Sequence record: DRR378314_1381
Strand: one strand, 5' to 3'
DNA: 47,829 bases
Below are positions 4,146-38,855 of this stretch, piece after piece. The notes below the pieces were generated by a model. It was not told where the DNA came from, ran no database searches, and saw only the letters and a list, made by a program, of their open reading frames with translations. Both the position numbers and the translations under genes were made by a program. How positions within the stretch are numbered: position 1 is the stretch's first letter; each line of letters begins with the position of its first letter.

Positions 4146-4159
4146 CCAAAGCGGACATT
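4146..4159 (+). repeat. Module-boundary repeat core CCAAAGCGGACATT (copy 1)
   Basis: Identical 14-mer at 13907-13920; lies between the convergent VOC and LysR genes. Confidence 0.6.
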
Positions 4160-4226
4160 TCCAACTGAGCTTTACAGTCCCTGACGGGCAAAAATGCGAG
4201 TGCTCTTAAATCTTTGTTTGATGAGA

Positions 4227-5072
4227 TCACTTAGCTAGCGCTTTGGATATGCGCTCAACTAAAGCCTTCTGAACAACGGCAAACCTTGGGGTTTGCGCAA
4301 TTTCCTCTAACGTCGCGACCCAAAGCGGAACTTCAATCTCAGGACATACGTCCTGCGACCTTTTAAGGCGGGTATCCGCGTCGCCAAAAAATGACGGCAG
4401 AAAGGTTTTACCCGCTCCCGAGGCAGCCAGCTGCTGTAGCACCAGAAAACTGTCTGCTCCGTTGGTCATTTCGTCGGCGCTCACATTCGCTTTCAGCCAT
4501 TTGGCAGGAAGTGAACGGCTTAACGCCCCATCAAGCCTCATCCAATTGCGATTTGGGAATCCGTCGTCGAAGACGCCGAAGGACAGCGTTCCTGCACGTT
4601 GCCCGACTAGCCCTTCCCCAAGCTTTATCGATGGGCGCACAGCAATGTCTGCTGTCAGTCTGGAAAGATCATGGTGGCTATTTTGGCTCAGCAGAGTCAA
4701 ATTCAAGCCTGGGTAAAGAAGTGAGATTTCGTTCAAGATGCGAGGTAGAACAATCTGACAAAGACTATCGGTCGATGTAATGCGCACCTGCCCCATAGGA
4801 GACCGATTTGCTCCGACAACTGCCCGCTCAACCGACAGCACCGCGTCTTCGACGCTTGCCATAGCCGAAAGGATCGCACTAGCTTCGGGGAGGACGGAAT
4901 ATCCTGACGGGTTTTTCTGAAAAATCCGGCAACCATTGCGCTCTTCGAATGCGGCCACTCTGCGCAAGACTGTGGCATGCGTAACGCCCAGGGCCGCCGC
5001 CGCCGCGTTCAACGAACCGTATTTGTTTACTGCTAACGCGTACCGAATATCATCCCAGTTTTCATTGTTCAT
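4227..5072 (-). CDS. LysR family transcriptional regulator
   Basis: NWDDIRYALAVNKYGSLNAAAAALGVTHATVLRRVAAFEE HTH plus substrate-binding domain; divergent from the cytochrome genes. Confidence 0.93.
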   Translation of the reverse strand: MNNENWDDIRYALAVNKYGSLNAAAAALGVTHATVLRRVAAFEERNGCRIFQKNPSGYSVLPEASAILSAMASVEDAVLSVERAVVGANRSPMGQVRITSTDSLCQIVLPRILNEISLLYPGLNLTLLSQNSHHDLSRLTADIAVRPSIKLGEGLVGQRAGTLSFGVFDDGFPNRNWMRLDGALSRSLPAKWLKANVSADEMTNGADSFLVLQQLAASGAGKTFLPSFFGDADTRLKRSQDVCPEIEVPLWVATLEEIAQTPRFAVVQKALVERISKALAK

Positions 5073-5158
5073 AAATTAACAGGTGACGACCAATAACAAA
5101 CAATTACAAGTAAATTCGTTCAAGGTAACATTCGGAGTATTGAACAGGGAGACACACC

Positions 5159-5626
5159 ATGATGCAGAAATTTTCGATCTTTGCGGCCGGTATATTATCG
5201 GTGGCTGCAATTGGCACAGCCATCGCCCACGAAAGCGAAAACCCGGCTGTGAAAGCTCGAACCTCAATCATGCAACTCTATGCCTTCAATCTTGGTACAC
5301 TTGGCGGCATGGCTAAGGGCGAGGTCGATTATGATGCCGAGGCCGCAACACGGGCTGCAAACAACCTTGTTGTACTAACGCAGATCGACCAATCCGCGAT
5401 GTGGCCCGCGGGATCCGACAATGTATCCGATCCGTCCACCCGAGCGCTGCCTGCGATCTGGGAAAACTTCCCTGACGTTGGTGCGAAAGGGCAAGCCATG
5501 GCAGACGCAGCTGTTGTGATGCAGGCTGCGGCCGGACAAGATGTTGATGCCCTGAAAGCTGCGATGGGCGATCTGGGTGGAAGCTGTTCGGCATGTCACA
5601 AAGCGTACAGAGCACCGAAAGACTAA
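5159..5626 (+). CDS. Class II cytochrome c (cytochrome c'/c556), periplasmic
   Basis: Signal peptide, helical composition, TRALPAIWEN, single C-terminal CSACH. Confidence 0.92.
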   Translation: MMQKFSIFAAGILSVAAIGTAIAHESENPAVKARTSIMQLYAFNLGTLGGMAKGEVDYDAEAATRAANNLVVLTQIDQSAMWPAGSDNVSDPSTRALPAIWENFPDVGAKGQAMADAAVVMQAAAGQDVDALKAAMGDLGGSCSACHKAYRAPKD

Positions 5627-5639
5627 TTGGTAGATAGTT

Positions 5640-6548
5640 GTGAAGCGGTTTTTCCTTTTCACCGCTTTCGTTGCACTTTTAGTTGGGTTGGCCGGTTTGG
5701 TGCTGACCCGACCACAAAGAATGGATCAGTCTCAACTCGACGATCTGAACCCAGATCTCGCCAGAGGTGAAATCGTGTTCCACGCCGCAGGATGCGCATC
5801 CTGTCATTCAGCGCCGGATGCGGTTGGTGAGGAAAAGTTCATGCTCTCCGGTGGTCGCCGGTTCGAGACGGAATTCGGCACGTTCATTGCCCCCAACATT
5901 TCCAGTCACCCAGAAGTTGGTATTGGGTCCTGGTCTGCCCTTGATCTGGCCAATGCCCTGATCCACGGCACCGGACCCGAAGGGCAACACTATTTTCCTG
6001 CGTTTCCTTATACGTCTTATGCCAACATGTCAGTCGAAGACGTTGTTTCGCTTCACGCATTCCTCGGCACGCTACCAGCGGTCGCAACCGAAAGCGAGGT
6101 ACATGAGGTTCGCTTTCCCTTCAACATTCGACGCGGAATGGGGGGATGGAAGCTTTTGTTCATGTCGCCAGGCTGGGTAGTCGAAGGTGATCTGACCAAC
6201 CAACAATGGCAAGGCCGGTATCTGGTGGAGGCGTTGGGTCACTGCGCCGAATGCCATACGCCGCGAAATGGCTTAGGTGGTCTGAAACGAGACCTTTGGC
6301 TGACAGGTGCACCAAATCCAAACGGGAAAGGTCGCATCCCCGGCCTTACCTCAGACCAGCTTGATTGGTCCGAAGCTGACATCGCCGAGTACCTGAAATC
6401 TGGTTTCACGCCGGATTATGACAGCGCAGGTGGTGAGATGGTGGACGTCATCGAGAACACATCACGCCTCACGGATGAGGACCGTTTGGCGATTGCCGCC
6501 TATCTCAAAGCTGTTCCTGTTTCATCGACGGGGCTTTCATCCGAATAA
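5640..6548 (+). CDS. Membrane-anchored diheme cytochrome c
   Basis: N-terminal TM, CASCH and CAECH heme motifs, APNISS..GIGSWS, YFPAFPYTSY. Confidence 0.92.
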   Translation: MKRFFLFTAFVALLVGLAGLVLTRPQRMDQSQLDDLNPDLARGEIVFHAAGCASCHSAPDAVGEEKFMLSGGRRFETEFGTFIAPNISSHPEVGIGSWSALDLANALIHGTGPEGQHYFPAFPYTSYANMSVEDVVSLHAFLGTLPAVATESEVHEVRFPFNIRRGMGGWKLLFMSPGWVVEGDLTNQQWQGRYLVEALGHCAECHTPRNGLGGLKRDLWLTGAPNPNGKGRIPGLTSDQLDWSEADIAEYLKSGFTPDYDSAGGEMVDVIENTSRLTDEDRLAIAAYLKAVPVSSTGLSSE

Positions 6549-6713
6549 CAGTCGTTTGGCGCGATGCAGCGGGGACCAGATGCCGTCGCCGGTTGCCGGT
6601 AGGAAGCGGCAGGGCCTGTTCCCTTTCTACCAAACACCTGTTTTACGTTTTGAACACCGGAACTCAGCAGTCGCACGAGTTTCTGTTCATGATTGACTGA
6701 GGGTCGTGACCGA

Positions 6714-7595: not shown

Positions 7596-7643
7596 ACAGG
7601 TCATATGGCTTTGCAAAAACTCTATCGGTTTGACTGATCTGTT

Positions 7644-11663: not shown

Positions 11664-11667
11664 GACA

Positions 11668-12398: not shown

Positions 12399-12832
12399 AT
12401 GTCAGGATGTTGCGGACATGACGTCAAGTTCGATGGCGTTTCAGATGATTACAAAAGGCGATTGTGGATCGTCATTGCTCTTAATGCCACGATGTTCGTG
12501 GTCGAGATGACCGCTGGGCACTATGCGAAATCTCAGGCACTTCAGGCCGACGCACTCGACTTCTTGGGAGATGCCCTGACCTACGGTATTTCTTTGGCTG
12601 TCATTGGCGCTTCAATCCGTGCACGCACAAATGCTGCCTTGGCCAAAGGCCTCAGCCTCTTTCTGATGGGTTCATGTGTGTTCGGATCGATAGTTTATCG
12701 CGTGTTCTATGTCGGAGTTCCTGAGGCTGAAATCATGCGGGTGGTGGGGTTCCTTGCTCTGCTTACAAACCTAGCCAGCGTTCTTCTACTCGTCAGATAC
12801 AAAGATGGAGACGCGAATGTCCGCTCTGTCTG
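12399..12832 (+). pseudogene. CDF/CzcD-like cation transporter, 3' part lost at IS30 insertion
   Basis: MSGCCGHD..LWIVIALNATMFVVEM..SQALQADALDFLGD..DGDANVRSV, then abrupt switch to IS sequence; the expected WLCSRND continuation is absent. Confidence 0.85.
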
Positions 12833-13910
12833 TGTGGTTTCAACTGATCGCCGCAACACAGGTTTCAAATTTCTCTGCTGGTGTTTGGTATTGCAAGGTT
12901 TTTCGAGATCGCTCGTTAAGCTGGCGCGCAACGGCGCTGAGTTTGGCCTGGCTAAAGCCTGATATGTCAGTGCATTTGGGGAAGTATTGGCGAAGCAACC
13001 GGTTGGTATTTTCATTGCTACCGAGTTGCCAAGGTGACTGCGGATCACAAAAATAGACATTAATCTTTGTCGCCATGGTGAACGTCACGTGTCCTGCCAT
13101 CTCAGAGCCACGGTCCCATGTCAGTGATCGGTACAGCTCTTTGGGCAACTTGCGGGCCTGCTTGATCAGGGCCGTGATAAACTTTGGGTGTCCTTGTTCT
13201 CGACTTTGGCCAACATCACAAACCGGGAATGGCGCTCCACGAGTGTGGCGATGTAGCTGTTGTTGGACCCCACGATCAGGTCGCCCTCCCAGTGCCCCGG
13301 CACGGCCCGATCCTCGACCTCTGGAGGGCGCTCGCTGATCGGGATCGCGTTCTTGATCTTGCGCAGTTTCAACCCTTTCTGAGTTGCGTGCCGTGACCGC
13401 CTGATGGCACGCGGGCTGCGCAAGCACTCCAGCAATTCCTTCTTTAGGACCCCACGGGTCTGCACATAAAGGCAGCGATAGATCGTCTCGTGGGACACGC
13501 GATGCTGCTCCTCGTCGGGATGTTTCCGCTTGAGCCAACCAGCAATCTGCTGCGGCGACCATTTCCGACGCAGCTTGCGTGCAATCAGGTGGCACAATGG
13601 ATCATTGAACGAGAGTTTACATGATTTGGGACGCGTTGCGCAGTCCCAGGCCCGCTGATCCGAGCGCGCCGTGCGATAGGCCTGACGCCCACCATTTCTG
13701 CGAACCTCTCGGCTGATCGTTGAAGGCGACCGGTTCAGGCTCTTGGCGATAGACCGCAACGACCGCTCTGAAACCAAGCCGCGAGATATCTCCTCCCGCT
13801 CCGTCAGGCTCAAAGCAAATCGCGACCTCTTACGGCGGCGGGCCGGATCCCGCCAAACAGAGCCAAATGCGGAATGATCGAAGACGATGCACGATTGAAA
13901 TGCCGTCCAA
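12833..13910 (-). mobile_element. IS30-family element remnant (one end retained, 5' end deleted, transposase frameshifted)
   Basis: LSLTEREEISRGL, WSPQQIAGWL, VSHETIY, PGHWEGDLI, then in another frame SLTWDRGSEMA, YFCDPQSPWQLGSNENTN; frameshifts near 13180 and 13840; stop codon lies inside the terminal sequence TGTGGTTTCAACTGATCGCCGCAACAC. Confidence 0.9.
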
Positions 13911-13964
13911 AGCGGACATTCGTAACAAGGCTTTGCAGTTCCGGCTTCGGACTATAAGCCGTCA
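13907..13964 (+). repeat. Module-boundary repeat (copy 2)
   Basis: CCAAAGCGGACATTCG...TTCCGGCTTCGGACTATAAGCCGTCA; abuts the IS30 truncation on one side and contains the copD stop on the other. Confidence 0.65.
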
Positions 13965-18688: not shown

Positions 18689-19085
18689 AATCCGACCCTT
18701 CGCTGCGCCTCTTTTGAACTGGCGAGATGCGGACCAATCCCGACCTTGGGTTTCGCGCCTTCGCTGACGCAGCATTGGTTTGCGGTCGCAGCGCAATTGA
18801 TTTTGCAGCGCGGCGTGGGGCGTCAATCCGGTCATTCGTGGGTGTCGATTCCGCTCGTACCAATACCGTACTTTCGCGGCAACCTGGATCAACCATCGAG
18901 ACGCGGGACAATCCCGCCTTTTGCTCGCGCAGCTATTGCTAACGCAGCATTTTCTCGCGGGCGCGGCACGTACATCGCTGCGTCGCAGCCAGTGCCGCCA
19001 AATCGGTCATTCAAAGCCAATTTTGGGGAGCGAAACCCAAACTGCCTTTTCGCTGCGAGCCTGATCAACCGACGCGGAGCGGAAC
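18689..19085 (+). repeat. Degenerate tandem array of ~175-bp non-coding units (about 2.3 copies)
   Basis: Anchors recur at 174-176 bp: TTCGC(T/G)GC 18699/18873/19049, CAATCCCG 18735/18909, ACGCAGCATT 18767/18942, CGGTCATTC 18829/19004, GATCAACC 18887/19063. Confidence 0.75.
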
Positions 19086-19285
19086 GTTTTAGACATTAAT
19101 GAATTTGGCTTTCGCTGGCGCAGAAATGCTTCCGGAACGCGGCAAGATATTCACGTGCGTTGCATTTATTTATCGACGACGCGACCATCTAACTGACTTT
19201 CGGGAGCTCATTTTTACCGGTCTGTCTTCTCGATGATGCATTAGCTCATTGAGAATTCAACCGGCATCTCTGATTCCACGAGGAG

Positions 19286-21920: not shown

Positions 21921-21944
21921 TTCTGAGCTCTCCGTTATGTTGGA

Positions 21945-22748: not shown

Positions 22749-22760
22749 TTTGAAATCTCC

Positions 22761-25204: not shown

Positions 25205-27282
25205 GCGGTCTCTCCCAATTCGATATGGATATTGCGATAGGTATCCACGCTGACTTTGTTGCCGGGGTGGATGACGATTGTCGTACCGGGATCCTCGACC
25301 ACAGCGGGGCCGTTAAAGGTCATGCCCGGTGATAGTTCTCCACCATCGTAGATGTCTGCCAAGTGCCGTCCCTCAAGTGCGTAATCGACCGTGCGCCTGG
25401 ATTTGATTGCTCCGCTGGCGTCCGCGTCTCCCATAGGAGCTGGCGACATCTCAATCTTGCCAACTTCCGCGCGGGCGACAAGGTGGATGCCCACCATCTC
25501 GACCGGGGCATCAAGGCGATAAGTATATTCCCGTTCATACGCCTCGCGGAAGTCTTCGGCGATCTGATCCAGCTTGGCGTCAGTAACAGCGCCATCAAGC
25601 AATACTTCGGTCGTGTGTTCCTGATTTTGGTAGCGAAACTTGCCGTAACGCAAGAAAGACACTTGTTCAGCGGTGACACCGTCGGCTGCAAAGGTCTCGC
25701 GCGCTTTGGCTTCCGCCTCGGTAAAGATGTGTTCGATGACGCCGCCCGCACCTTCCGACAGTTCCGCCAGTTGCGTAACAAAAAAATCGCGCCGCAGGTC
25801 TGACATCATCATCCCCCAGGCTGAGAACACCGCCGCCGCCGCAGGGACAACGACCTTTTTGACCTGTAGTTCCTGTCCAAGGGCAACGGCGTGCATGGCA
25901 CCACCACCGCCAAAGGCCAGCAGCGTGAAATCGCGTGTGTCATGACCACGGTTCAGCGAGACGAGCTTCAGCGCGTTGACCATGTTGTTGTTGGCAATAC
26001 GGATGATACCACGGGCCGCTTCATCCGCATCAACTTCAAGTTTGTCGCCCACGGCTTTCAGCGCAGCCTCTGTATTGGCCATATCGGCTTCGATGGAACC
26101 CCCACAGAAATAGTCGCGATTGATCCGGCCCAGCCAAAGGTTTGCATCTGTAGTTGTCGCAGCTTCGCCACCCTTGCCATAGGCCGCGGGGCCAGGTAGC
26201 GCGCCGGCTGATTGCGGGCCAACGTGCAGCTTGCCAAAGTCATCGACCCAAGCGATAGAGCCACCACCATTGCCGATCTCAACCAGATCAACCACCGGCA
26301 CCATGATCGGATAGCCTGCAGATTTACGGGACCGCTCGATCCAGTAATCCGTCATGATGCGCACTTCGCCATCTTCGATCAGTGAGCATTTCGCCGTGGT
26401 GCCGCCAATATCCAGCGCAAGGATATTTGGTTCGCCAATCAGTTTGCCCAGTTCAGCTGCCCCCCAGAACCCAGAGGCCGGGCCGCTTTCCACCATGGTG
26501 ATCGGCACGGCCGAAGTTGCGGCAAGGCTGTCGACGCCGCAGTTTGACTGCATGATAAACGGCGATTGCTTCAGCCCGCCCTGTTTCATCCCCTCGTCCA
26601 GTTTACCCAGATAGCGCGCTGCAACAGGCTGTACATAGGCTGACAGCACGGCGGTGTTGGAGCGTTCATATTCACGCCACTCGCGGGTGATTTGATGGCT
26701 GGCCACAACCGAGACCTCGGGCCACATGCGCGTAACCTCGGCCAACAGCGCCTCTTCATGTGCGGTGTTGGCGTAGGAATGCAGCAGGCTGATCGCGACG
26801 GCCTGGACCCTTTCGGCGCGGAAATCCTTAAGGATGGCGGGCAGACCGGACAGATCCAGCGGCGCACGTTCCGTGCCTTGATAAGTCATCCGTCCAGGGA
26901 CCTCAGCACGCAAGTGACGCGGCACGAAGGGTTCAGGTTTTTCATAGTGAAGGTTAAAGAAATCCGGGCGGTTGCCGCGTGCGATCTCTAGCGTATCGCG
27001 AAACCCTTCAGTTGTGATCAGCCCAACTTTGACGCCCTTGCGTTCGGTCAGCGCGTTGATGACCACTGTTGTGCCATGTGCCATGAAATCCACATCGGCG
27101 GTGGCAATACCGTCTGCTTCCATCTTGCTCAGCACGTTCAGCACACCTTGTTCGAAATTGGGTGGGGTCGTGTCAGACTTTGCGGTTACGACGCGCATGC
27201 CATCGTCCCCTGTCTCAAAGGCCACAAGATCGGTAAATGTTCCGCCTACATCCGTGGCAACACGTCGGATTGAATTTGTCAT
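25201..27282 (-). CDS. Hydantoinase A / oxoprolinase family ATP-binding subunit
   Basis: DVGGTFTD, HGTTVVINAL, SGPASG, DIGGTT, GGGSIA, GPQSAGALPGP, FGGGG; AAGGAG RBS before ATG 27282. Confidence 0.95.
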   Translation of the reverse strand: MTNSIRRVATDVGGTFTDLVAFETGDDGMRVVTAKSDTTPPNFEQGVLNVLSKMEADGIATADVDFMAHGTTVVINALTERKGVKVGLITTEGFRDTLEIARGNRPDFFNLHYEKPEPFVPRHLRAEVPGRMTYQGTERAPLDLSGLPAILKDFRAERVQAVAISLLHSYANTAHEEALLAEVTRMWPEVSVVASHQITREWREYERSNTAVLSAYVQPVAARYLGKLDEGMKQGGLKQSPFIMQSNCGVDSLAATSAVPITMVESGPASGFWGAAELGKLIGEPNILALDIGGTTAKCSLIEDGEVRIMTDYWIERSRKSAGYPIMVPVVDLVEIGNGGGSIAWVDDFGKLHVGPQSAGALPGPAAYGKGGEAATTTDANLWLGRINRDYFCGGSIEADMANTEAALKAVGDKLEVDADEAARGIIRIANNNMVNALKLVSLNRGHDTRDFTLLAFGGGGAMHAVALGQELQVKKVVVPAAAAVFSAWGMMMSDLRRDFFVTQLAELSEGAGGVIEHIFTEAEAKARETFAADGVTAEQVSFLRYGKFRYQNQEHTTEVLLDGAVTDAKLDQIAEDFREAYEREYTYRLDAPVEMVGIHLVARAEVGKIEMSPAPMGDADASGAIKSRRTVDYALEGRHLADIYDGGELSPGMTFNGPAVVEDPGTTIVIHPGNKVSVDTYRNIHIELGETA

Positions 27283-27283
27283 G

Positions 27284-27766
27284 TCAGGCTCCTTTTCGGA
27301 CGGCATTAGCGACCAGAAGTGCCAATGCGCCGGGTTGTTTCAGAGTTTCGGCGGCTGCAACGCGGTCTGCCGTATAGTGTCCCGCCTTGTGCAGGCAGTT
27401 GAGCGTGCCGATGACCTTCCCCGCGACAACGATTGGCAGGTTCAAACAGCTTTCGCAGCCAAGCGACTGGATCAGCTCGTGGTCAGGAAAAACCGAGGCG
27501 ATTTCCTCTATCGTATTTGCTACAAATGTTTCGTGGCGACCCTCAACCTGAGCACTCCAGGCGTCTTCCCGCATCGGTTTTTCACCGGTCGCGGGATAGG
27601 CATCGGGCATATTTGTGTAGCTGCGTCGCGCAACACGCTTTTCTCGGTCGAGTTCCATGATTGTGAACAATTTTGCGCCAATTGTTTTGGACACCTCATC
27701 CGCGACCGCCTTGAAGATCGCTTCGGGCTGGTTGGGGTGGGATAGGATTTCTGTGAAATCTGTCAT
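27284..27766 (-). CDS. Stand-alone GAF domain protein
   Basis: IGAKLFT..RRSYTNMPDAYP..FPDHELIQSLGCESCLNLPIVVAGKVIGTLNCL. Confidence 0.85.
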   Translation of the reverse strand: MTDFTEILSHPNQPEAIFKAVADEVSKTIGAKLFTIMELDREKRVARRSYTNMPDAYPATGEKPMREDAWSAQVEGRHETFVANTIEEIASVFPDHELIQSLGCESCLNLPIVVAGKVIGTLNCLHKAGHYTADRVAAAETLKQPGALALLVANAVRKGA

Positions 27767-28560
27767 GAGGACTCCGCTAGTTTGTCTCGCAGCGCCATTT
27801 CGTCGGGATCGACCACAGGCACCGCACCGATCAGTTTTCTGGTGTATTCCGCTTGAGGCTGTGTAAAAATCTGTTCGGTCGTTCCGCTTTCGACAAGCCG
27901 GCCCGACTGAAACACTGCAACGCGGTCAGCGATGTTGCGTACTACGGCAAGATCATGGGTGATGAACACATAGGTCAACCCGCGTGACGCGCGCAGTTCA
28001 TTCAGCAACCGCAAAACACGCGCTTGTACAAGCACATCCAGCGCGGAAGTGGGTTCATCAAGAACCAAAAGCTCGGGCTCGCAGGCGAGTGCACGTGCAA
28101 TGCCGACACGTTGCCGCTGACCGCCAGACAACGCCGCAGGCGCACGTTTGCGCATATTGGCAGGCAGGCCGACAGCCTCAAGCGCCTGTTCAACGATCTG
28201 CCACCGATCAGCGCGCGCGCCGATCCCGTAGGTATCCAAACCCAATCGCACAGACGCCCCAACCGACCTTTTGGGATTGAGGGAAGACAACGGGTTTTGC
28301 TGGACCAGTTGAATGTGGCGACGTTGATCCGGTGTGCGTTTTGGCGACAGCACGGTGTCGTTGAACAACACATTTCCGCTGGTCTGCGCCAGAATACCAA
28401 GGATCATATTGGCGAGGGTCGTTTTCCCGGACCCGCTTTCGCCGACAATGGCAAGACATTCGCCCTGCGTCACCTCTAGCGATACATCGCGCACCGCATG
28501 TATCTTTCCGGCAGGGCTGTCGAAGGTCTTGATCAAGTTCTCGAGAGACAAAAGGCTCAT
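27763..28560 (-). CDS. Peptide/nickel ABC transporter ATP-binding protein (DppF-like)
   Basis: GESGSGKT, LSGGQRQRV, LDEPTSALD. Confidence 0.95.
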   Translation of the reverse strand: MSLLSLENLIKTFDSPAGKIHAVRDVSLEVTQGECLAIVGESGSGKTTLANMILGILAQTSGNVLFNDTVLSPKRTPDQRRHIQLVQQNPLSSLNPKRSVGASVRLGLDTYGIGARADRWQIVEQALEAVGLPANMRKRAPAALSGGQRQRVGIARALACEPELLVLDEPTSALDVLVQARVLRLLNELRASRGLTYVFITHDLAVVRNIADRVAVFQSGRLVESGTTEQIFTQPQAEYTRKLIGAVPVVDPDEMALRDKLAESS

Positions 28561-29426
28561 GCTACGCCCCCGTGACTGATCTGAGGAGCGAAGAAGTCTT
28601 CGCTGACTTCTGGCACTTCCGGCAGTCCTGCGCCCGTGATGCGCGGAACCGCTGACATAAGGGCGCGCGTGTAAGCATGGCGCGGATCTGAAAAAAGCGC
28701 CTGCGTCGGCCCGTCCTCGACAATATTTCCGCGGTAAATCACGTAAACCCGATCGGCGAATTCGCGCACCACACCTAGATTGTGCGAGATGAACAGCACT
28801 GCCGTGCCATGATCCGCAACCAGATTGCGCATCAGCGTTAACGTCTGGGCCTGAACGGACACGTCCAAAGCGGTGCCCGGCTCATCCGCCAAAAGCAGTT
28901 TCGGACGATTGGCTAGTGCCATCGCTATCATGACCCGTTGGTTCATGCCGCCGGACAATTGAAACGCGTAGGCATTCAAAACCCGGTTCGGATCGGGGAT
29001 CGAAACCTCGCCCAACATCTTCGTGGCTCTCTCTTGGCACGCATCTGCACCCATGGATGGGTCACGCCTTCGCAAAACCTCGGTGAACTGTCGCCCGATT
29101 GTAAATGCCGGGTTCAGGGATGACGTCGGGTCCTGAAAAATCATCGACATATCTGTCCCTCTAAGTGCTGCACGCGCTTTGGGGTTCATGGCTGAGATGT
29201 CGTTCCCATCGAACTTGACCGCGCCCGAAATTCGCGCCGACCGAGTTTCTTGTAAAAGGCCCAATACGATCCGCGCGGTGACCGACTTGCCCGATCCGCT
29301 TTCACCGACAAGCGCCACACGCTCGCCCTGCGCGATGTTCAGGGAAATGCCGTGCAACACGTTGTTGATACCGGACAGCCCTTTGAACCCCAGATGCAGG
29401 TCACTGATGCTTAGCAGAGCGCTCAT
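28557..29426 (-). CDS. Peptide/nickel ABC transporter ATP-binding protein (DppD-like)
   Basis: GESGSGKS, MIFQDP, LSGGMNQRV, ADEPGTALD. Confidence 0.95.
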   Translation of the reverse strand: MSALLSISDLHLGFKGLSGINNVLHGISLNIAQGERVALVGESGSGKSVTARIVLGLLQETRSARISGAVKFDGNDISAMNPKARAALRGTDMSMIFQDPTSSLNPAFTIGRQFTEVLRRRDPSMGADACQERATKMLGEVSIPDPNRVLNAYAFQLSGGMNQRVMIAMALANRPKLLLADEPGTALDVSVQAQTLTLMRNLVADHGTAVLFISHNLGVVREFADRVYVIYRGNIVEDGPTQALFSDPRHAYTRALMSAVPRITGAGLPEVPEVSEDFFAPQISHGGVA

Positions 29427-30256
29427 TCGTCTACCCCCAGAACTTCACGTAGGCCGTCGCCCATCAGGTTGAACCCGAAGACTGCAATCAGAATTGCGAG
29501 GCCGGGGAAAACGGTCAGCCACCAGCTGTCTGGAAGATAGCGCGCACCCTCGGCGACCATTGATCCAAGATCCGGCGTCGGTGGCTGCACCCCAAGCCCA
29601 AGGAAAGACAGGGACGAGGCGATGATGATCACAAAGCCCATATCCAGAGTCATTTTGGTGATAATCGCTGGTAAGCAGTTAGGAAGAATTTCGCGAAAGG
29701 CGATATGGGCCGTACCCGCGCCGATCACCTCGGCAGCTAACACATAGCCTTCTTCGCGCTCTGACCGGGCAATCGCGTAGACCAGCCGCGCATACCAGGG
29801 CCACCACATGACCGTCACGGCGAGCATGGCGTTTGTCAGTGTCGGCTCCAGCACACCCATCATCGCGATGGCCAAAACCAGCGGTGGGATAGACAGGAAC
29901 ACATCGACAATGCGCATCAGAATTGCCTCGGCCCAACCGCCAAGATAACCCGCCAGCAGGCCGAAGATCGTACCGACCGGGGCGGCGATGGCCAGGACAA
30001 CCACGCCCAGCACTAGCGAAATCTGATAGGCGTATAGAATTCGACTGAAGAGATCGCGCCCAACCAGATCAGTGCCCATCCAATTGCGCGCGGATGGGGG
30101 CTTGTTTGCAAAGGCAAAATCCACAACCGCACCGTTATGGGTGGGAAATGGTGCAATCCAGGGGGCGAAGATGGCGGCAAACACGACCAAAGCGACAAGG
30201 ATCACACCCACCAGTGACAATGGGTTGGCTGCCAGTATTCGGATTGCGCGGATCAT
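29423..30256 (-). CDS. Peptide ABC transporter permease (DppC-like)
   Basis: MGTDLVGRDLFSR, YVLAAEVIGA, LSFLGLGVQPPTPDLG. Confidence 0.95.
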   Translation of the reverse strand: MIRAIRILAANPLSLVGVILVALVVFAAIFAPWIAPFPTHNGAVVDFAFANKPPSARNWMGTDLVGRDLFSRILYAYQISLVLGVVVLAIAAPVGTIFGLLAGYLGGWAEAILMRIVDVFLSIPPLVLAIAMMGVLEPTLTNAMLAVTVMWWPWYARLVYAIARSEREEGYVLAAEVIGAGTAHIAFREILPNCLPAIITKMTLDMGFVIIIASSLSFLGLGVQPPTPDLGSMVAEGARYLPDSWWLTVFPGLAILIAVFGFNLMGDGLREVLGVDE

Positions 30257-31281
30257 CAGGTTGCCCTCGTGGAATGGCGGATGCGCGGATTAAGAAACGC
30301 GATCAGTAGATCGACGATGACGTTCACAATGAGGAACGTCAGCGCGATGATCAAAACGGTGCCCATGATGGCGTTGAGATCCTTACGTAAGATCACCGCT
30401 ACGCCATAGCGGCTCAGCCCTGGCCAAGCGAAGACTGCCTCTACCAGAAAGGCGTTGCCCAACATGGCCGCAAAATCGAGGCCAATGATCGTCAATGATG
30501 GGATCAGCGAAGGTTTAAACGCATAAATGCGCGCAATACGAGAAGGAAAGAACCCGTAGGCCTGTGCCATCTCGATGTAGGGTTTATCGTAGGTCTCTAC
30601 CATATTGGCGCGGGTAAGTCGGGCCGCTTGACCTATCCCCGACAGTGCAAGCGCCACGGCGGGCAGGATCAGATGGCGAATGGCGTCACCAAACGCCGCG
30701 ATATTCCCGGCCAGCAGCGTGTCGATCAGAAGGAAACCGGTATGCCGGTCGATGTCATAGATGTCCGAAATACGACCTGCGATGGGAAAGATCGGCAGAT
30801 AGAATGCAAAGAGAAGCATCAGGATTACCGCCCAGACGAAACTGGGTGCTGACACCGTCAGCAACGAGAAAATTCGTATCAGATGATCAGGCCAGCGGCC
30901 ACGATAGCGCGCAGCAAGTATTCCCAGTGGCAGGCCCAAGGCGACCATGATGATGCCGGCAATCAAAACCAGTTCAAGCGTTGCGGGCAAGAATTGCGCG
31001 ATGTCCAGTGTCACGGGACGATTGGTATAGAGCGAGGTGCCCAAATCACCGCGGCTTACATCTGCCAAGAAATGCCCGTATTGCAACACGAGCGGTTCAT
31101 CGAGGTGCATTTCCGCCCGCAGATTTGCAACCTGCTCGGGCGTGGCATTGGGGCCAAGCGCGATGCGCGCCGGATCGCCGGGAATAACTCGGGCAATGGT
31201 AAAGATCAGCATGGAAACCCCGATGAGGACAATCAAAGAGATACCAAGCCGTCTAAGAAGAAGGCGGAGGACAGGGGACAT
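30256..31281 (-). CDS. Peptide ABC transporter permease (DppB-like)
   Basis: IPGDPA, GDLGTSL, LPATLEL, VEAVFAWPG. Confidence 0.95.
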   Translation of the reverse strand: MSPVLRLLLRRLGISLIVLIGVSMLIFTIARVIPGDPARIALGPNATPEQVANLRAEMHLDEPLVLQYGHFLADVSRGDLGTSLYTNRPVTLDIAQFLPATLELVLIAGIIMVALGLPLGILAARYRGRWPDHLIRIFSLLTVSAPSFVWAVILMLLFAFYLPIFPIAGRISDIYDIDRHTGFLLIDTLLAGNIAAFGDAIRHLILPAVALALSGIGQAARLTRANMVETYDKPYIEMAQAYGFFPSRIARIYAFKPSLIPSLTIIGLDFAAMLGNAFLVEAVFAWPGLSRYGVAVILRKDLNAIMGTVLIIALTFLIVNVIVDLLIAFLNPRIRHSTRAT

Positions 31282-31299
31282 TTATTTGCTCTGGAAAAG

Positions 31300-31325
31300 G
31301 CCGGGCACCTGCGTAGGCGCCCGGC
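31300..31325 (-). terminator. Intercistronic hairpin after the SBP gene
   Basis: Minus strand GCCGGGCGCCT-ACGC-AGGTGCCCGGC followed by CTTTT. Confidence 0.6.
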
Positions 31326-31339
31326 AGTTCAGGGAGGTA

Positions 31340-32908
31340 CTATTCTTCAACCATTTCCATCAGACGGAAGCTGAAGCCCATTCCATCCAGACCGAAGGCC
31401 TGCGAAGGATCGCTGAGCGCCGGAGCCTTGACCCGGTTCGATGCCGCGAAGACCGACTGACGATCATATCCATAGATCGTCGGTGCGATTTCCATGAGCC
31501 GTGCATTAAGCCCAGAATACGCAGCCTCGCGCTCTTCATCCGTTGAAGCGCTACGCCCTGCATCGAGGAACGCGTCAACCTGGCTGTCATTCAGGTACTC
31601 GGGCGATTGCCATGTGCCCGGTGTGGATGAGTGATACATGCCATAAAGCAGTGTATCCGGGTCACCGGTGACGGCGTTTACAAAGATCTGGCTGACATGC
31701 GGAGTGTTTTCGGGTTTGGACACTTGTTCAGCAAACAGCGCCCAGGGAAGTTTCTTAATTTCGGATTGTACGCCCAATTGCGATAGATTCGACTGGAATA
31801 GCAGCGCAAAACGCTCTTCCAGCGGAACCTCGGCAATCCAGGATACTTCGATATTCATATCGGCAGGATCATAGGCGCAGGCTGAAAGATACTCTGCCGC
31901 CTTTTCGAGATTTTGCGCTTGAACGTTGTCAGGCCCGTTTGCCCCGAACATACCCACCGGGATTGCGCCGGTCGCAGCACTGCCAGAGGAGACATCATCG
32001 GTGATGGCAACCATCTGAATGGCAGTCTGGTAGTCGAATGCGTGAGCCAATGCCAGGCGGCAGTTCACGTCATCCAGTGGAGGCTTGGTGGTGTTCATCT
32101 TCAGATAAAAGGCACCGGTTCCGGTTTCACTGAACAACTGCGCACCATCGTTGGCGAGGGCTGTCATGACCTCGGGCGGTAGCCATTGGCTTGAAATGTC
32201 ATGTTCACCCTGTGCGATCAGGGTGCGGACGGTCGCGGCCTCAAGACCATACCTCAGACGCACCGTGTCAGGCGCAACATCGGAAACGCCAAGGAAATAG
32301 CCATCATTCTTGGCCATAACCGTTTCTTCCTGTGGGTTGTGGGAGGTTACGGTGTAGGCACCCGTTCCTGCGCCATTGGCGCTGAGGAAAGCCTCGCCCC
32401 ATTCGTCATCACCCTTTTTTGCTTCTACCAGCGCCTTGTCGACGATTGGCAAACGGTCAAGTGAGGCAACAAACGGGGCGTATGGCTGTTCAAGCGAGAA
32501 GACGACTATATGTTCATCGACCGCTTCGGCGCTTACTCCGGCCAAAAGATAAGAAAGACCTGAACCCAGTGCCTGACTGCGTTCCAGTGAATAGACAACG
32601 TCTTCGGCGCGCAGTGGATTGCCAGACTGGAAGGTCACATCATCGCGAAGATTGAACGTGTAGGTCGAGCCATCCACCGACCAGTCGCTGGCAAGATGTG
32701 GCACATGCCCCGGTCCACCCTGTTGCGGCAGGACCAGGGTGTCATAGACGTTGAACATCAAGATCGAGTCCGCATAGTCCGATGCCTTGGCTGGATCGAG
32801 TTCACCGACCGCAACTTCATCAAGCCGCAAAACAGTCTCTGCAAAGGCTGGTGAACTGAGGGCTGTCGCGGCGCACAGAGCCGCAGCAAGCAAGGATTTC
32901 CGCTTCAC
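31340..32908 (-). CDS. ABC substrate-binding protein, family 5 (DppA/DdpA-like)
   Basis: Signal peptide, LDPA, NVYDTLV, YTFNLRDDVTFQSGNPL, GTGAY. Confidence 0.93.
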   Translation of the reverse strand: MKRKSLLAAALCAATALSSPAFAETVLRLDEVAVGELDPAKASDYADSILMFNVYDTLVLPQQGGPGHVPHLASDWSVDGSTYTFNLRDDVTFQSGNPLRAEDVVYSLERSQALGSGLSYLLAGVSAEAVDEHIVVFSLEQPYAPFVASLDRLPIVDKALVEAKKGDDEWGEAFLSANGAGTGAYTVTSHNPQEETVMAKNDGYFLGVSDVAPDTVRLRYGLEAATVRTLIAQGEHDISSQWLPPEVMTALANDGAQLFSETGTGAFYLKMNTTKPPLDDVNCRLALAHAFDYQTAIQMVAITDDVSSGSAATGAIPVGMFGANGPDNVQAQNLEKAAEYLSACAYDPADMNIEVSWIAEVPLEERFALLFQSNLSQLGVQSEIKKLPWALFAEQVSKPENTPHVSQIFVNAVTGDPDTLLYGMYHSSTPGTWQSPEYLNDSQVDAFLDAGRSASTDEEREAAYSGLNARLMEIAPTIYGYDRQSVFAASNRVKAPALSDPSQAFGLDGMGFSFRLMEMVEE

Positions 32909-33552
32909 TTATTCTCTCCCTTTGATTTGTTATTATTTCCTCCGCCAAGCGAAGAAATCTTGTGAATTGGGGACGGCGCGTCGCCAAAAACATCCATGGT
33001 TCCGCACCACAGGATCGACGCTGTCACAATGCCGTGGTTCCATGTCGAATGAACGCGTGTGCTGTCAAAGTGGATCGTGTCTCCCTTTCGCAGCACTTCC
33101 TTGTCGCCTTCGATTTCCACGGTAATTTCGCCTTCGAGGATGAAAAACATTTCCTCACCCTTGTGACTGATTGGCTCACTCCGATGGCCGGGTGGTTCAT
33201 GCAAAACGACGGAGTGCAATTGCGATCCTGTGAAGGTCGACGAAACGCGCTCGTAGGACGCCGCAGCACCTGGAACCGAATACACTTCGCGCCCTTTGCT
33301 GCGCGTCATATCTCCTGCATCGGGCTGTACAAGGAACGACCCGCGCGGCATTTCTAGAATTTCTGTGATGCCTGCAAGAGACGCAAGAGAAGGTGCGGAC
33401 AGCCCTCGTTCGATCTGGCTTATAAAGCCGACCGACAGACCTGCTGCGTTTGCGACGGCCTGCATCGTCAATCCCATTTTTTTTCGGCGAGCGCGAATGG
33501 CAAGTCCGAGTTCTAGAGCTTGGTCGTTTTCGGCGAGTGATTTTTTTAACAT
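32905..33552 (-). CDS. XRE family regulator with cupin domain
   Basis: IRARRKKMGLTMQAVA..LSVGFISQIERG HTH; HKGEEMFFILEG..GDTIHFDSTRVH cupin. Confidence 0.92.
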   Translation of the reverse strand: MLKKSLAENDQALELGLAIRARRKKMGLTMQAVANAAGLSVGFISQIERGLSAPSLASLAGITEILEMPRGSFLVQPDAGDMTRSKGREVYSVPGAAASYERVSSTFTGSQLHSVVLHEPPGHRSEPISHKGEEMFFILEGEITVEIEGDKEVLRKGDTIHFDSTRVHSTWNHGIVTASILWCGTMDVFGDAPSPIHKISSLGGGNNNKSKGENK

Positions 33553-33613
33553 GACTAAAATACTACACACGCTGATGCGATCGCGTCAATATAATTTTAG
33601 TATGGGTAAAATT
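33544..33613. promoter_or_regulatory. Candidate XRE-cupin operators TTTTA-N7-TAAAA
   Basis: Copies at 33544-33560 and AATTTTA-N7-TAAAATT at 33593-33613 in the AT-rich operon leader. Confidence 0.5.
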
Positions 33614-33859
33614 TTGTCATGCCTTGTTTTTAGTTCAAGTTAAAATATTTGACTTTTTTGTACATTTTCAATGGCATAACAACCCAAGGCTTCCCAATTG
33701 CGCAATGCTACGTATAGGTGCTTAGGCCATTTTGCATTCAATTTCCTGAACTGGTGATAAAACTTACGGTTGTTCTGAAACCCCAAGAACAGCCCATGGG
33801 TCTCTGATTTATGGTAGGGTGCTCGCCAATCCAGTTGGTCGATAGCTGTTGCGGATAAA

Positions 33860-34260
33860 GTGAACGGCTGCAAAGTCCGCAACCTGTGAATTGATCACTT
33901 GGAAAAATGCTGCGCTAGGCACTAACGGCCGATCAGACTGCCGCTCTGCATCAAGAAATTTTCGCTTGCGCAGAAATCTTAGCGCTGCGAGCGGATGCAG
34001 CGGAAAAATCAAAGGAACAGATAGGACTCGCTCCTGTCTTTCTCTGCGCTATTGATGAGCGGCTGGTCGCAGCCCAAACTTGCCGTTCAATTGTGACGCG
34101 CCGCTCTGAATGCTGCATGTGCGAGGATTTCCAACCATTCCAGCGAAAGCGGACCTTCAACCGGTCCCGAGTACTCTTGCTGATGCTGCAAGCTGCACCA
34201 GAGGCAGCGAAGCGCAGAAAGTAGACTTTGCAAAGTCGAGCGCACTGCCGTTCACAAACG
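33860..34260. repeat. Cluster of module-boundary repeat elements
   Basis: AAAATGCTGCG 33904-33914 (reverse complement of 18943-18953), AAGCGGACCTTC 34147-34158, GCGCAGAAAGTAGACTTTGCAAAG 34212-34235. Confidence 0.65.
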
Positions 34261-36136: not shown

Positions 36137-36309
36137 AAATGTCGCCCAATTCGGCCATACCTAATAATTGCCGAATATCGACTGGAATGCACGTCTATCC
36201 TTTAAGTTGCCTGCACAAAATTAAAACTGAGCTATGAACTCCGAAAAAACTATCTTTTGTTTCAATCAACTTGTTCGTCTTTGAGTTGAGACTGTGATTG
36301 TTAACACCC

Positions 36310-36476
36310 TTGCAGCGAACGATAGGCGTGACTTTCAATGTCCGGTTCGGGCTGGCTCTAGCCGGTCACGGTTGGCCAAGAGCAGTGTTGTGACGGGCAG
36401 GCAGGCGCTGCGATACCGCAAGGCGGCTGCGAGCCCTTTTTGCAAAGTTTACCGCAGCGTGGCGAAGGTCCGCTTC
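36310..36476. repeat. Module-boundary repeat elements between cyclase and GNAT-methyltransferase genes
   Basis: AATGTCCGGTTCGGG 36337, TTTGCAAAGT ~36439, GAAGGTCCGCTT 36464-36475 (exact inverse of 34147-34158). Confidence 0.6.
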
Positions 36477-36482
36477 ACCAAG

Positions 36483-37547
36483 TCAGGCTTCAGTATCTGA
36501 TCCATGTTCGCGACCAGACTGCCGAACGAACAGTGCTTCTGGTTTGTCCAGCGCCATCTCCCAAGCGTCGGCACTCGAAGTGATGACCTCCTTGAACCCT
36601 TGCATGTTCTCAGGCTCGTCCGAGATCAAAACCCAACCACCGTCTGACACGCGACCAATCAATCGCTCCAGCACGATCAATCGATCTTTCTCAGAGAGCA
36701 TGTGCAACGTACGGTCCAGAAGAAGCACATCGAATTCCCCATCGGGAACGAAAGTCCTGATGTCAGAAACGACGCCCTCAATGCTGAGGTTTTCGCGGTG
36801 TGCTGCTTCGTTCAAATCACGAATGCCATTAGGCGAGAGATCGACTCCGACAATTCGGTGCCCAAGTCGCCCGATAAATATTGCGTCGCGACCCTGGCCG
36901 CAGCCAATGTCCAATACACGCAGAGGATTCCCTGCATGTTGCTTGAAGAAATCGACAAAGAGTTGTGTTGGCTCCCCAAGTGCCTGAGGTGTCGATCCAT
37001 AGAGTTTGTCGAAGTTGTACGGGATATACAGACCAAACATCTCTGTCGTCGCGTCTGACAAGTCTTCCACCAACTCAAATCCGTTTTTTTGCAAAACCCT
37101 GGAGGACGCAGTATTGCCGTTTTCCACACCGCCAAATAATTGCACCGATTGGCCTTCGCCCTTGCACCAAGTGACCAGGCCCGCGATCAGCTCGGTCGCG
37201 TACCCCTTTCCCCAAGCCTCTTCAGAAAACAGATACCCTAAATGAACCGTTGTAAGGAATTCGGAGTCGACAAACTCGGCCAGGATCAAGAGGCCAAGCA
37301 ATCTATCGCTGGCGCGATCACGAACCAGCATCACGTTGCATTCAGCGGCGCGTGATGTGATCCATTCGTCAATCGCTGGATGTGTCTCTGACATCTGCAA
37401 TGGTTCAGGCAGGTGTCGTAAAACAAAGGGGGTTAAGACGTCCTTGAGTTCCTCAACTAGGGCGCTCCGTTGGTCGTTGCTGTTTATGGTCTCAGACCAA
37501 CTCTCGGCCTGCATCCTTACGGTTTCAATTCTTTTGGCTTGTGTCAT
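36483..37547 (-). CDS. GNAT (RimJ/RimL-type) acetyltransferase fused to class I SAM methyltransferase
   Basis: LGYLFSEEAWGKGYATE..NTASSRVLQKNGF followed in frame by VLDIGCGQGRD..GVDLS..FDVLLLDRTLHML. Confidence 0.85.
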   Translation of the reverse strand: MTQAKRIETVRMQAESWSETINSNDQRSALVEELKDVLTPFVLRHLPEPLQMSETHPAIDEWITSRAAECNVMLVRDRASDRLLGLLILAEFVDSEFLTTVHLGYLFSEEAWGKGYATELIAGLVTWCKGEGQSVQLFGGVENGNTASSRVLQKNGFELVEDLSDATTEMFGLYIPYNFDKLYGSTPQALGEPTQLFVDFFKQHAGNPLRVLDIGCGQGRDAIFIGRLGHRIVGVDLSPNGIRDLNEAAHRENLSIEGVVSDIRTFVPDGEFDVLLLDRTLHMLSEKDRLIVLERLIGRVSDGGWVLISDEPENMQGFKEVITSSADAWEMALDKPEALFVRQSGREHGSDTEA

Positions 37548-37614
37548 AGCATCTGCCCCGGTGTCTTGGATCGCAAAGTCTCGGAAAGTGTCTTGACAAT
37601 GCGCACGCATAGGT

Positions 37615-37633
37615 TAGTTAGTTTAACTGACTA
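37615..37633. promoter_or_regulatory. MarR operator candidate 1
   Basis: TAGTTAG-N5-CTGACTA, downstream of TTGACA (37593) and just upstream of marR. Confidence 0.6.
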
Positions 37634-37647
37634 TATAGGGTGCTTCT

Positions 37648-38079
37648 ATGAAACTGGCAAGACTGATCGAACTGGCGCACAGACAAGGCCACAGACAATG
37701 GGCAAAAGCGGGCGGGCATCTGGGGATGACCCACAGCGAGTATGAGTATCTTCGCGCCATAAAAGATCAGGAAGCCAGGAAGACCGACAAGGATGATCAC
37801 GGGCAACATCTTCAGGATGTTGTTGATGAGATGGGTGTCAGAAAAGCATCCGCCAGCGCAATGGTCTTGAAGCTTGAAGAACGCGGGTTGGTCGTGCGGT
37901 TCCCGTGTCAGTACGACGCTCGCGCCCAACACATTATGTTGACCGAACAGGGGCAGACGCTGTTGTATTCTGGGGAAGAAATCTACGAGGCCGCAGCGCA
38001 GGCACTGCTTGCAGAGTTATCGGAATATGACTTCAAAGCTCTAAAAGTCGCGATTGAACAGCAACGAAACTCGGCCTGA
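37648..38079 (+). CDS. MarR family regulator with His-containing insert
   Basis: MTHSEYEYL..DDHGQHLQDVVDEMGVRKASASAMVLKLEERGLVVR..DARAQHIMLTEQG. Confidence 0.9.
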   Translation: MKLARLIELAHRQGHRQWAKAGGHLGMTHSEYEYLRAIKDQEARKTDKDDHGQHLQDVVDEMGVRKASASAMVLKLEERGLVVRFPCQYDARAQHIMLTEQGQTLLYSGEEIYEAAAQALLAELSEYDFKALKVAIEQQRNSA

Positions 38080-38100
38080 CAGCCATTTGACCAGTAACGT

Positions 38101-38119
38101 AAGTCAGACTTACTAATTA
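38101..38119. promoter_or_regulatory. MarR operator candidate 2
   Basis: AAGTCAG-N5-CTAATTA, inverse of the candidate 1 pattern, upstream of the 38138 gene. Confidence 0.55.
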
Positions 38120-38137
38120 AAATGATGGAAACACAAT

Positions 38138-38566
38138 ATGACATTCGAACTCGTACTCATGGCAACCGCTATCCACATTCTGATCTGGGAAAAGCTTCCG
38201 GAATGGGGAACATGGTTTAACACTTTCATAGCCGCATTACCGCGCCTTTTGAGTTCTCTCTATGAGCAATGGCACTGCCCATATTGTGCCGGATTCTGGA
38301 TTGCGCTGGTGCTGCACGGTTTGACTGGGTTTTGGACAATCCCCGACCTCGCCTCACTGCCAGGTTACCTGGGTGTCACTGCAACGCCGGTCGGCTGGAT
38401 CCTTGATGCACTTGCAACTGCGACCTTGGTATATGCTGCGATCATCGGCTTGAAGGCGATTGGCTTGCCCGCGATGAAAGCCCACATGATGAAAGAGGAT
38501 TTCATGAAATCCGCCTTCAAGGGAGAGGATGTTCAAACGGACATTGGCGTAACCGCAGCGAATTAG
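38138..38566 (+). CDS. Small membrane protein with CPYC motif (DUF1360-like)
   Basis: Hydrophobic helices and WHCPYCAGFWIAL; C-terminal ~10 codons run into repeat sequence. Confidence 0.7.
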   Translation: MTFELVLMATAIHILIWEKLPEWGTWFNTFIAALPRLLSSLYEQWHCPYCAGFWIALVLHGLTGFWTIPDLASLPGYLGVTATPVGWILDALATATLVYAAIIGLKAIGLPAMKAHMMKEDFMKSAFKGEDVQTDIGVTAAN

Positions 38567-38855
38567 TTCTTTGTCCGCACTGCCGCCTGTGACCGGGCAG
38601 GCACGCTGCAATTGCGGCGGATCGGGTCAAACGGCTGGCTTTGCAAAGTCTACTTTCTGCGCATCGCTGTAGTTGGGGCATCTCGCAGCATCGGTCAAAG
38701 TGGGCTCGCTGCTGACGTCGGTGCCGTTGCAGCAAAGCCCCCTGCCCCGCCAGTAGCTGATCACAAGGACGGCCCTTTACCGACATTCGACATTTATTCA
38801 GATTTTACTAGTCGACTTCCAGAAAGCCGCCATTCGTGCACAGAGCAGCATTTTC
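38534..38855. repeat. Cluster of module-boundary repeat elements
   Basis: CAAACGGACATT 38534, CTTTGCAAAGTCTACTTTCTGCGC 38639-38662 (exact inverse of 34212-34235), AAAGCCGCCATTCG 38823, GCAGCATTTTC 38845. Confidence 0.7.

Follow-up and report, generated by a model that had tools for sequence, protein, structure and literature searches.

Mosaic palindromic repeats at the ends of relocated gene modules in Rhodobacterales

The stretch of DNA analysed here (47,829 nt of sequence record DRR378314_1381, G+C content about 54%, hereafter the window) contains dispersed short repeats that probably guide the movement of gene blocks, because three relocated blocks begin and end at repeat words. The repeated motifs represent conserved boxes within a superfamily of non-coding mosaic repeats that are similar to repetitive extragenic palindromic (REP) sequences and bacterial interspersed mosaic elements (BIMEs), and the M box (AAGCGGACATTCGCTGC) is a short, reduced form of a Rhodobacterales palindrome. 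We assign a probability of roughly 0.5 to the reading that these REP/BIME-like repeats serve as the ends of gene modules, which would be moved by an end-directed cut-and-join process supplied in trans.

Gene modules and their ends

Three modules were found in two unrelated contexts each: a 15.1-kb hydantoinase/ABC-transporter module (module 1), a 2.36-kb module with a serine hydroxymethyltransferase (SHMT)-like gene and a LysR regulator (module 2), and a 2.15-kb GNAT-methyltransferase/MarR/CxxC module (module 3). In all six contexts the DNA common to both copies of a module starts with GCGGACAA and ends with GGRCTC. The two ends of a module differ in sequence and do not form inverted repeats. 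The modules possess their own regulators (helix-turn-helix (HTH)-cupin, LysR and MarR), the orientation of their genes is mixed, and no mobility genes or recombinases were found inside them. An earlier note on this DNA had located related motifs at junctions between functionally unrelated blocks; this holds for the ends of the modules, but not for the junction between an IS30-family element and the cop genes, which is explained otherwise (see below).

The genome nearest to the window, G001, has 86% of sampled words in common with it. Positions 1-13910 (98.3% identity) and 13902-18911 (99.6%) align to contig C7 of this genome, positions 18906-34029 to contig C6 (166597-181720; 99.97%), and positions 34024-47829 again to C7 (99.8%). 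This mosaic divergence suggests several separate recombination histories. The portion aligning to C6 corresponds to module 1, which in G001 is located between xthA and a response-regulator gene, and its slot on C7 is occupied by a 2358-bp SHMT-like/LysR segment instead. The left joint of module 1 lies in GCGGACAA, which is present on both C6 and C7 and has an extra G in the window, and the right joint lies in GG[A/G]CTC. The xthA gene is present in 61/61 genus genomes. We interpret the C6 copy of module 1 as an insertion because xthA and the response regulator are adjacent in 23 of 29 relatives' loci, where their spacer measures 321-1283 nt, varies by species and lacks the 174-nt repeat unit described below. 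Between module 1 and the conserved blocks on its two sides, 37 and 25 nt of this variable spacer remain. The spacer itself is a hot spot (G001 C6:166491-181878, loci L140-L168), with a different insert, often a small gene, in nearly every species examined. Downstream of the TetR gene, five other species have different DNA, and the right end of module 1 was found in 0 of 60 other genus genomes. Positions 18800-34508 are spanned by a Logan contig from the probable source run, and this contig extends a further 4.2 kb leftward. This second assembly was made independently, although not from an independent sample, and since it bridges both joints, the arrangement at module 1 is not the artefact of one assembler.

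Module 3 is 99% identical to its counterpart in G069, and the flanks are unrelated on both sides. As the TetR gene is 92-93% and xthA 80-87% identical between species, this points to a recent transfer of module 3 between species. Module 2 (G001 C7:181799-184173) is 94% identical to a segment of G072 (contig C18) with likewise unrelated flanks, whereas other species reach 68-76%. It starts with CGCGGACAAAG (CGCAGACAAAG in G072) and ends with GGGCTCGC (AGGCTCGC in G072). The G072 copy was found after the rule for the ends had been formulated, and its two ends deviate from this rule by no more than 1 and 8 nt.

The coincidence of joints and motifs was evaluated for 4 joints and the 5084 intergenic bases of the window, with GCGGAC +/-2 nt covering 1.4%. 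The chance of finding at least two of the four joints at GCGGAC +/-2 nt in intergenic DNA is 1.1e-3. The corresponding figure for GGRCTC, 5.7e-4, is inflated because this motif was defined after the joints had been seen.

The repeat families

The word AAGCGGACVTT occurs exactly four times in the window (4149+, 13910+, 34147+, 36465-), against 0.07 expected, and 0 of 100 shuffled windows had four or more, which bears out its non-random occurrence. Allowing up to one mismatch there are nine sites, five of them intergenic; one of the nine lies in the 3' end of the 38138 open reading frame (ORF), and another lies in the cation-efflux coding sequence adjoining the IS30-family insertion sequence (IS). 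The site at 38535 is a variant with one mismatch. Among the other words, CGGTCATTC is found at 18829 and 19004, GCAGCATT at 18769, 18944, 33906-33913(-), 34116(-) and 38845, and TTTGCAAAG at 34227, 36439 and 38640, but also at 7617, while AAGCCGCCATTCG starts at 38824 and not at 38823; the positions given earlier are thus accurate to within 1-3 nt. Intergenic DNA makes up 11.8% of the window, and the intergenic fraction is 5/10 for CGGAC[AC]TT, 4/5 for [AC]GCGGAC[ACT]T, 5/8 for GCAGCATT and 6/8 for TTTGCAAAG. The reported contact of motifs with gene ends was found in all three cases: the copD stop codon (13962-13964) lies inside a repeat, the box at 36465-36475 lies 7 nt from the stop of the GNAT-methyltransferase gene, and two boxes enclose the end of the 38138 ORF.

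Longer similarities within the window comprise a 36-nt pair (4146 and 13907), a tandem repeat of about 175 nt (18692-19164), a 63-nt inverted pair (34173-34235/38639-38701) and a piece that spacers E and F have in common upstream of TTTGCAAAG. The tandem is formed by a unit of about 174 nt, which starts with GCGGAC and holds both GCAGCATT and CGGTCATTC. A sequence-only model of this unit (R1) matches seven places in G001 and has matches in 49/61 genus genomes. These carry 1-25 copies, which are frequently arranged head to tail and frequently located at contig ends, with clusters on some contigs. The start of another unit regularly stands behind a copy and the tail of one often ahead of it; because of these flanking partial units the phase of the 174-nt unit is arbitrary, and the repeat element has a length of about 1.3-1.4 units. 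An assignment of all motifs to a single family under one model was rejected, as R1 detects only 18729-19168 in the window and the spacers A, B, D, E and F remain at E >=0.006. We likewise rejected a structured RNA for the unit, whose 39-copy alignment contains nine pairs with almost no covariation, and a protein-coding repeat, because the spacing of 173-179 nt is not a multiple of 3 and the ORF at 18686-19099 has no Pfam match. Searches against Rfam 15 yielded 0 matches at gathering score in the window, none at E up to 1 in 18600-19300, and chance-level matches only in 38560-38900. In G063, L094 1397-1680 and L131 411-694 hold the same 284-bp stretch with 100% identity, made up of one unit and the 104 nt ahead of it, and a third, diverged copy lies inverted 4.5 kb off; the identical pair indicates a recent duplication of a repeat element.

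The F block, of about 70 nt, is followed by a conserved imperfect hairpin of about 75 nt. The F-block core has matches at 85-93% identity in many genus genomes. The hairpin (model R2) is present in five copies in G001, in 29/61 genus genomes and in 1/120 other genera of the family. Pairing is maintained in 88% of cells versus 27-38% with slid partners, and both-sided changes occur in 7 of 19 pairs, values to be read in view of an alignment that was fitted to the model and therefore favours the structure. The hairpin begins with TGGGCTCG and ends with GGACGGCCC (20 aligned copies). Of 30 hairpin loci, 14 lie between convergent, 13 between tandem and 3 between divergent genes. Pairs in the same orientation, 0.9-12 kb apart, occur in several genomes, and hairpins are scattered over many contigs. 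The contigs G074:C61, C70 and C75 and G015:C66 end 33-46 nt past the hairpin; an assembly-breaking multi-copy sequence therefore adjoins it in those genomes.

The 20 aligned copies follow a fixed grammar, in which an M box (AAGCGGNCATTCG) is followed after 8-10 nt by GCAGCAT, after about 7 nt by the TGGGCTCG-hairpin, and after about 45 nt by a second M box. The three motif groups of the earlier note are therefore joined in one arrangement. In G001 the longer composites are the only enriched patterns: the box plus 6-14 nt plus GCAGCA (15 vs 0 in the control), GGACAAAG plus 4-7 nt plus TTCGC (6 vs 0), and GCAGCAT plus 8-18 nt plus GGRCTC (11 vs 1). A scan of all species genomes with GACAAAGTNNGCTTTCGC found at least 120 stretches, of which 80 loci were fetched. 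Of these, 44 belong to Rhodobacterales of many genera (classed by record title) and have a longer context in common, with the imperfect palindrome GCGG-AC-AAAG / loop / CTTT-CG-CTGC as its core, whereas the remaining 36, from unrelated taxa, are without such context. The neighbours of the repeats are diverse accessory genes and regulators, and the closest plasmid matches are found in Ruegeria and Tritonibacter. For Rhodobacteraceae, Ruegeria or Roseobacter, such repeats were not described in the literature covered, which excludes subscription journals.

The IS30-family element and other features of the window

The first part of the window contains genes for HtpG, an M48 peptidase, a VOC protein, a LysR regulator, cytochromes and cation efflux, followed by MerR regulators, a broken IS30-family element, the cop cluster, YceI and TetR. 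Next comes a 15-kb hydantoinase/racemase/peptidase/ABC-transporter operon with an HTH-cupin regulator, and the last part comprises a cyclase-TPR protein, a GNAT-methyltransferase fusion, MarR, a small CxxC protein, LacI and a glycine-betaine-type cluster. The repeats and modules are listed in Table 1.

The IS belongs to the IS30 family, with HTH_38 and rve (DDE) domains in two ORF pieces. Its intact form, present in G024, measures 1228 nt and has a transposase ORF of 386 aa. The copies of G001 and of the window are frameshifted, and G001 retains 145 nt that are gone from the window, where the last 145 nt of the IS are deleted between GCCGTCCAA and GCCGCCCAA. Because this deletion lies inside the IS, the IS30/cop joint (J1) is IS-internal, and we rejected it as a cassette joint. 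Inverted copies of the box (15 nt, 93% complementary) stand on both sides of the IS, the left one within the cation-efflux coding sequence. A box variant lies 3-8 nt from the IS end in 4/4 known left flanks, and in a 70%-related IS two distinct left flanks have TTTGTCCGGC at their end. The IS30-family element is thus shown to insert next to, or home to, the M box. The transposase occurs in 7/61 genus genomes, including G069 and G072. The arrangement of copy B, at the other side of the element, is also found upstream of a unit in G022.

Table 1. Repeats, modules and the insertion sequence in the window.
Feature	Position	Strand	Remarks
M box + tail (copy A)	4146..4181	+	VOC/LysR spacer; 36 nt, 78% to 13907-13942; exact 11-mer 4149
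M-like box in truncated cation-efflux gene, abutting IS left end	12814..12828	-	15 nt, 93% complementary to 13908-13922; Pfam Cation_efflux match stops here
IS30-family insertion sequence, frameshifted, last 145 nt gone	12833..13910	-	rve/HTH_38; ends from G024 copies
M box + tail + unit-start-like piece (copy B), copD stop inside	13907..13963	+	weakly matches positions 90-122 of the unit
Repeat unit U1 (~174 nt)	18729..18903	+	R1 102 bits
Repeat unit U2, first 175 nt of module 1	18904..19078	+	R1 124 bits; identical to G001 C6:166597 onward
Degenerate partial unit U3	19092..19168	+	R1 15.6 bits, E 4e-4
Module 1, hydantoinase/racemase/peptidase/ABC-transporter/regulator, 15.1 kb	18904..34029	+	starts GCGG(G)ACAA, ends GGACTC
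Relic repeat fragments	33849..34002	.	weak matches to the hidden Markov model of the unit; 75% match in G015
M-GCAGCAT composite within relic fragments	33904-33929	-	inverted match to 38829-38854
Module 1 right joint, in degenerate hairpin	34024..34079	+	5' arm GGRCTCGC, 3' arm AGCCCAAA
M box (copy D)	34147..34157	+	exact 11-mer
F block, inverted copy	34173..34235	-	63 nt, 81% complementary to 38639-38701
Unit 3'-half-like relic	36305..36350	-	M variant at 36337-36347
F-block 5' half, second copy	36390..36455	+	module 3 end inside, at 36430/36431
M box (copy E)	36465..36475	-	7 nt from GNAT-methyltransferase stop
Module 3, GNAT-methyltransferase/MarR/CxxC protein	36431..38579	-	starts TGCGGACAAAG, ends GGGCTC; 99% to G069:C30:107864-110012
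F block (5' half + 70-nt core ending GGGCTCG)	38589..38708	+	core matches at 85-93% in many genus genomes
Conserved hairpin G	38701..38775	+	R2 match 38695-38800, 108 bits
M box then GCAGCAT (composite)	38824..38852	+	composite pattern 15 vs 0 in G001

A few further observations concern the surroundings of the repeats. The apparent 668-nt spacer between the two MerR genes is coding, because it contains two small ORFs (11341-11886), by eye a MerT-like membrane protein and a cysteine-rich metal-binding protein, and its GCGGAC words thus lie in coding sequence. The ORF at 7743-8615, without Pfam match, has an aspartate-rich tract of 12-nt-periodic GAT/GAC-rich repeats (7895-8158). Within module 1, the two Hydantoinase_B paralogues are 73-77% identical over 19683-19791/24045-24153 and 20700-20794/25059-25153. 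A search for RepB in G001 gave nothing over the cut-off and nothing on C7, a result uninformative on plasmid location. In sequencing run X1, contigs at about six-fold depth (59 vs 10) have short matches to the repeats and may represent a multi-copy replicon of the source strain, and runs X3 and X4 yielded short, diverged pieces only.

How the modules may move

In the genus, the palindrome core is built into the 174-nt unit, the F block and the 75-nt hairpin, the last being located mostly behind the 3' ends of genes. The repeats would form the ends of gene modules without a mobility gene of their own, and an end-directed cut-and-join process supplied in trans would move such modules within and between genomes. 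A narrower and more tentative possibility is an undescribed module-exchange system of Rhodobacterales, in which multi-gene blocks of up to 15 kb, with a palindrome (GCGGACAAAG...) at the 5' end and GGRCTC at the 3' end, would be cut and rejoined with precision, inside genomes and from species to species, by a recombinase or nuclease encoded elsewhere. The repeats would then be the sites of this enzyme and the conserved hairpin its landing site, similar to integron cassettes or pdif modules, although the sites are unrelated.

Several observations weigh against an end-directed process. No recombinase or transposase linked to the repeats was found among the flanking ORFs scanned. In the genus, 5 of 157 ORFs (83 + 74) had mobile-type matches (a Mu-transposase C domain, two integrase fragments, a resolvase and RepB), with 2 among the 74 ORFs flanking hairpins, and across the order there were 4 among 82 (two serine recombinases, TniQ and a type IV secretion system coupling protein). 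Over the entire G001 genome, neither the bare 11-mer (16 vs 11 in the reversed control) nor GCGGACAA (217 vs 351) is enriched. Copy numbers per genome are low, the left and right flanks outside the modules have no common target sequence, and the idea that the unit is an empty cassette is without support given its arbitrary phase. Moreover, GGRCTC was defined post hoc, module 1 may have been moved or copied, and module 3 also occurs in run X2, which together with G069 probably represents one organism and was counted once.

Candidate enzymes and sites were likewise rejected. A driver of the RAYT (REP-associated tyrosine transposase)/IS200 type is contradicted by the Y1 transposase (PF01797/Y1_Tnp), which occurs in 13/61 genomes, but not in G001, and has the motif within 1.5 kb in 0/10 loci. 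The integron integrase model TIGR02249 gave 0/61 genus genomes over the 265-bit cut-off (best 95 bits), and a palindromic double box as recombinase site does not agree with the 8 inverted box pairs versus 11 in the control. The proposal of the earlier note of recombination sites or scars is supported insofar as the boxes coincide with structural breakpoints; its "integron-like" part is not.

The main rival, which we regard as somewhat unlikely, is that the repeats are passive hot spots. As REP-like elements they would have a role in the cell, such as that of 3' hairpins with an effect on mRNA or with bound proteins, and modules exchanged by ordinary transfer would tend to be integrated at them through illegitimate or short-homology joining, with no dedicated enzyme. 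The predominance of hairpins in convergent and tandem over divergent spacers is in congruence with such a role, and so is the maintenance of the hairpin structure with some compensatory changes. The joints display microhomologies of 8 nt (GCGGACAA) and 3-6 nt, with the extra G at the window joint, no linked enzyme was found, and the spacer between xthA and the response regulator received different inserts by species in the absence of any unit. However, the same two end points recur in six contexts of three modules, although 4/6 left flanks have no homology to a repeat, and random microhomology would not choose one word every time.

It is improbable that the transposase of the IS30 family, by targeting the M box, acts in trans on boxes as pseudo-ends, or creates the module joints via IS-mediated rearrangements. 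The IS inserts beside the box, and lies 5 kb from module 1 in the window, and its transposase is carried by both genomes in which modules 2 and 3 recur (G072 and G069), which has a chance of about 0.009 in a post hoc test. Yet no IS copy is present at any module joint, the module ends are no inverted repeats, the copy of G001 and the window is frameshifted, and the repeats (49/61 and 29/61) are far wider spread than the IS (7/61).

A true integron-like process is very improbable. Here the hairpin would be a folded, attC-like site, and a tyrosine recombinase from elsewhere would exchange cassettes at GGGCTC/G, which is compatible with an imperfect palindrome usually located 3' of genes, with the same-orientation hairpin pairs, and with module 3' ends at the first bases of the hairpin's 5' arm. 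The evidence on the other side is the complete lack of TIGR02249 hits over the cut-off, of attC core boxes (by inspection against the consensus) and of integrase-proximal arrays, the multi-gene content of the modules with regulators and genes in mixed orientation, and the missing hairpin at the 3' flank of module 1 and of module 3 in G069. The resemblance to integrons is confined to a conserved, lineage-specific imperfect-palindrome repeat behind genes and to gene units in different contexts.

Coincidence or artefact, i.e., breakpoints that must fall in repeat-filled spacers and joints that are possibly assembly errors, could be invoked because only four independent window joints were compared, GGRCTC is post hoc and all genomes are draft assemblies, but is already largely refuted by a 5' joint motif named beforehand with P of about 1e-3 in intergenic DNA alone, by the later finding of module 2 in G072, and by joints that lie inside long contigs and, in the window, are bridged by a second assembly.

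Among known systems, the closest likeness is to REP/BIME. As in the family definition of PMC2817692, the repeats are short extragenic imperfect palindromes combined with other motifs into mosaic clusters; they favour gene 3' ends and convergent spacers and are targets of IS insertion. In contrast, there are 1-25 unit copies per genome (in G001 seven unit matches, five hairpins and 6-15 of the composite patterns) compared to more than 100 in REP, and no RAYT. The pieces also exceed REP in length, the unit with 174 nt and the hairpin, whose loops are conserved, with 75 nt, and they coincide with the ends of movable multi-gene modules. The features of a MITE (miniature inverted-repeat transposable element) and Rfam matches are lacking and so are REP abundance and RAYT, whereas the architecture is REP/BIME-like. 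Against a MITE stand the unit ends (GCGGAC... and ...GAGGAC), the flanking partial units without duplication and the module ends that are not inverted, and against an IS200/IS605-derived element the lack of Y1 in G001 and of a common word in six left flanks. Lineage-specific intergenic repeat mosaics are also present in other alpha- and beta-proteobacteria, such as RIME in Rhizobium and NIME/dRS3 in Neisseria, to which the likeness is a general one. RIME is not known to have a role at module ends.

The pdif modules of Acinetobacter are discrete, without a recombinase of their own, bounded by short sites and shuffled between replicons, and the distance between the site and inserted IS elements is fixed (PMC10132070, PMC6449649). 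The gene modules described here are likewise bounded by short sites and lack their own recombinase, and an IS inserts next to the box. Xer-dependent dif modules have a 28-bp site with two inverted arms at both ends; the sites here do not seem to be such paired arms, as inverted box pairs are not enriched. The two ends of a module differ, and the modules are chromosomal or on large contigs and reach 15 kb. Homing of some IS elements to REP or pdif sites is mentioned in the same sources (PMC2817692, PMC10132070, PMC6449649).

The genomes of Roseobacter-group bacteria are mosaic and rich in islands. The defined pair of ends, the three example modules and the box-homing IS provide a handle on the transposon-free reshuffling of accessory blocks. 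If an enzyme acts on the ends, abundant marine bacteria would have a new route for exchanging gene modules; if there is no enzyme, it would be a clear case of REP-like repeats directing illegitimate-recombination joins. In both cases, annotation can use the repeats to mark where modules begin and end.

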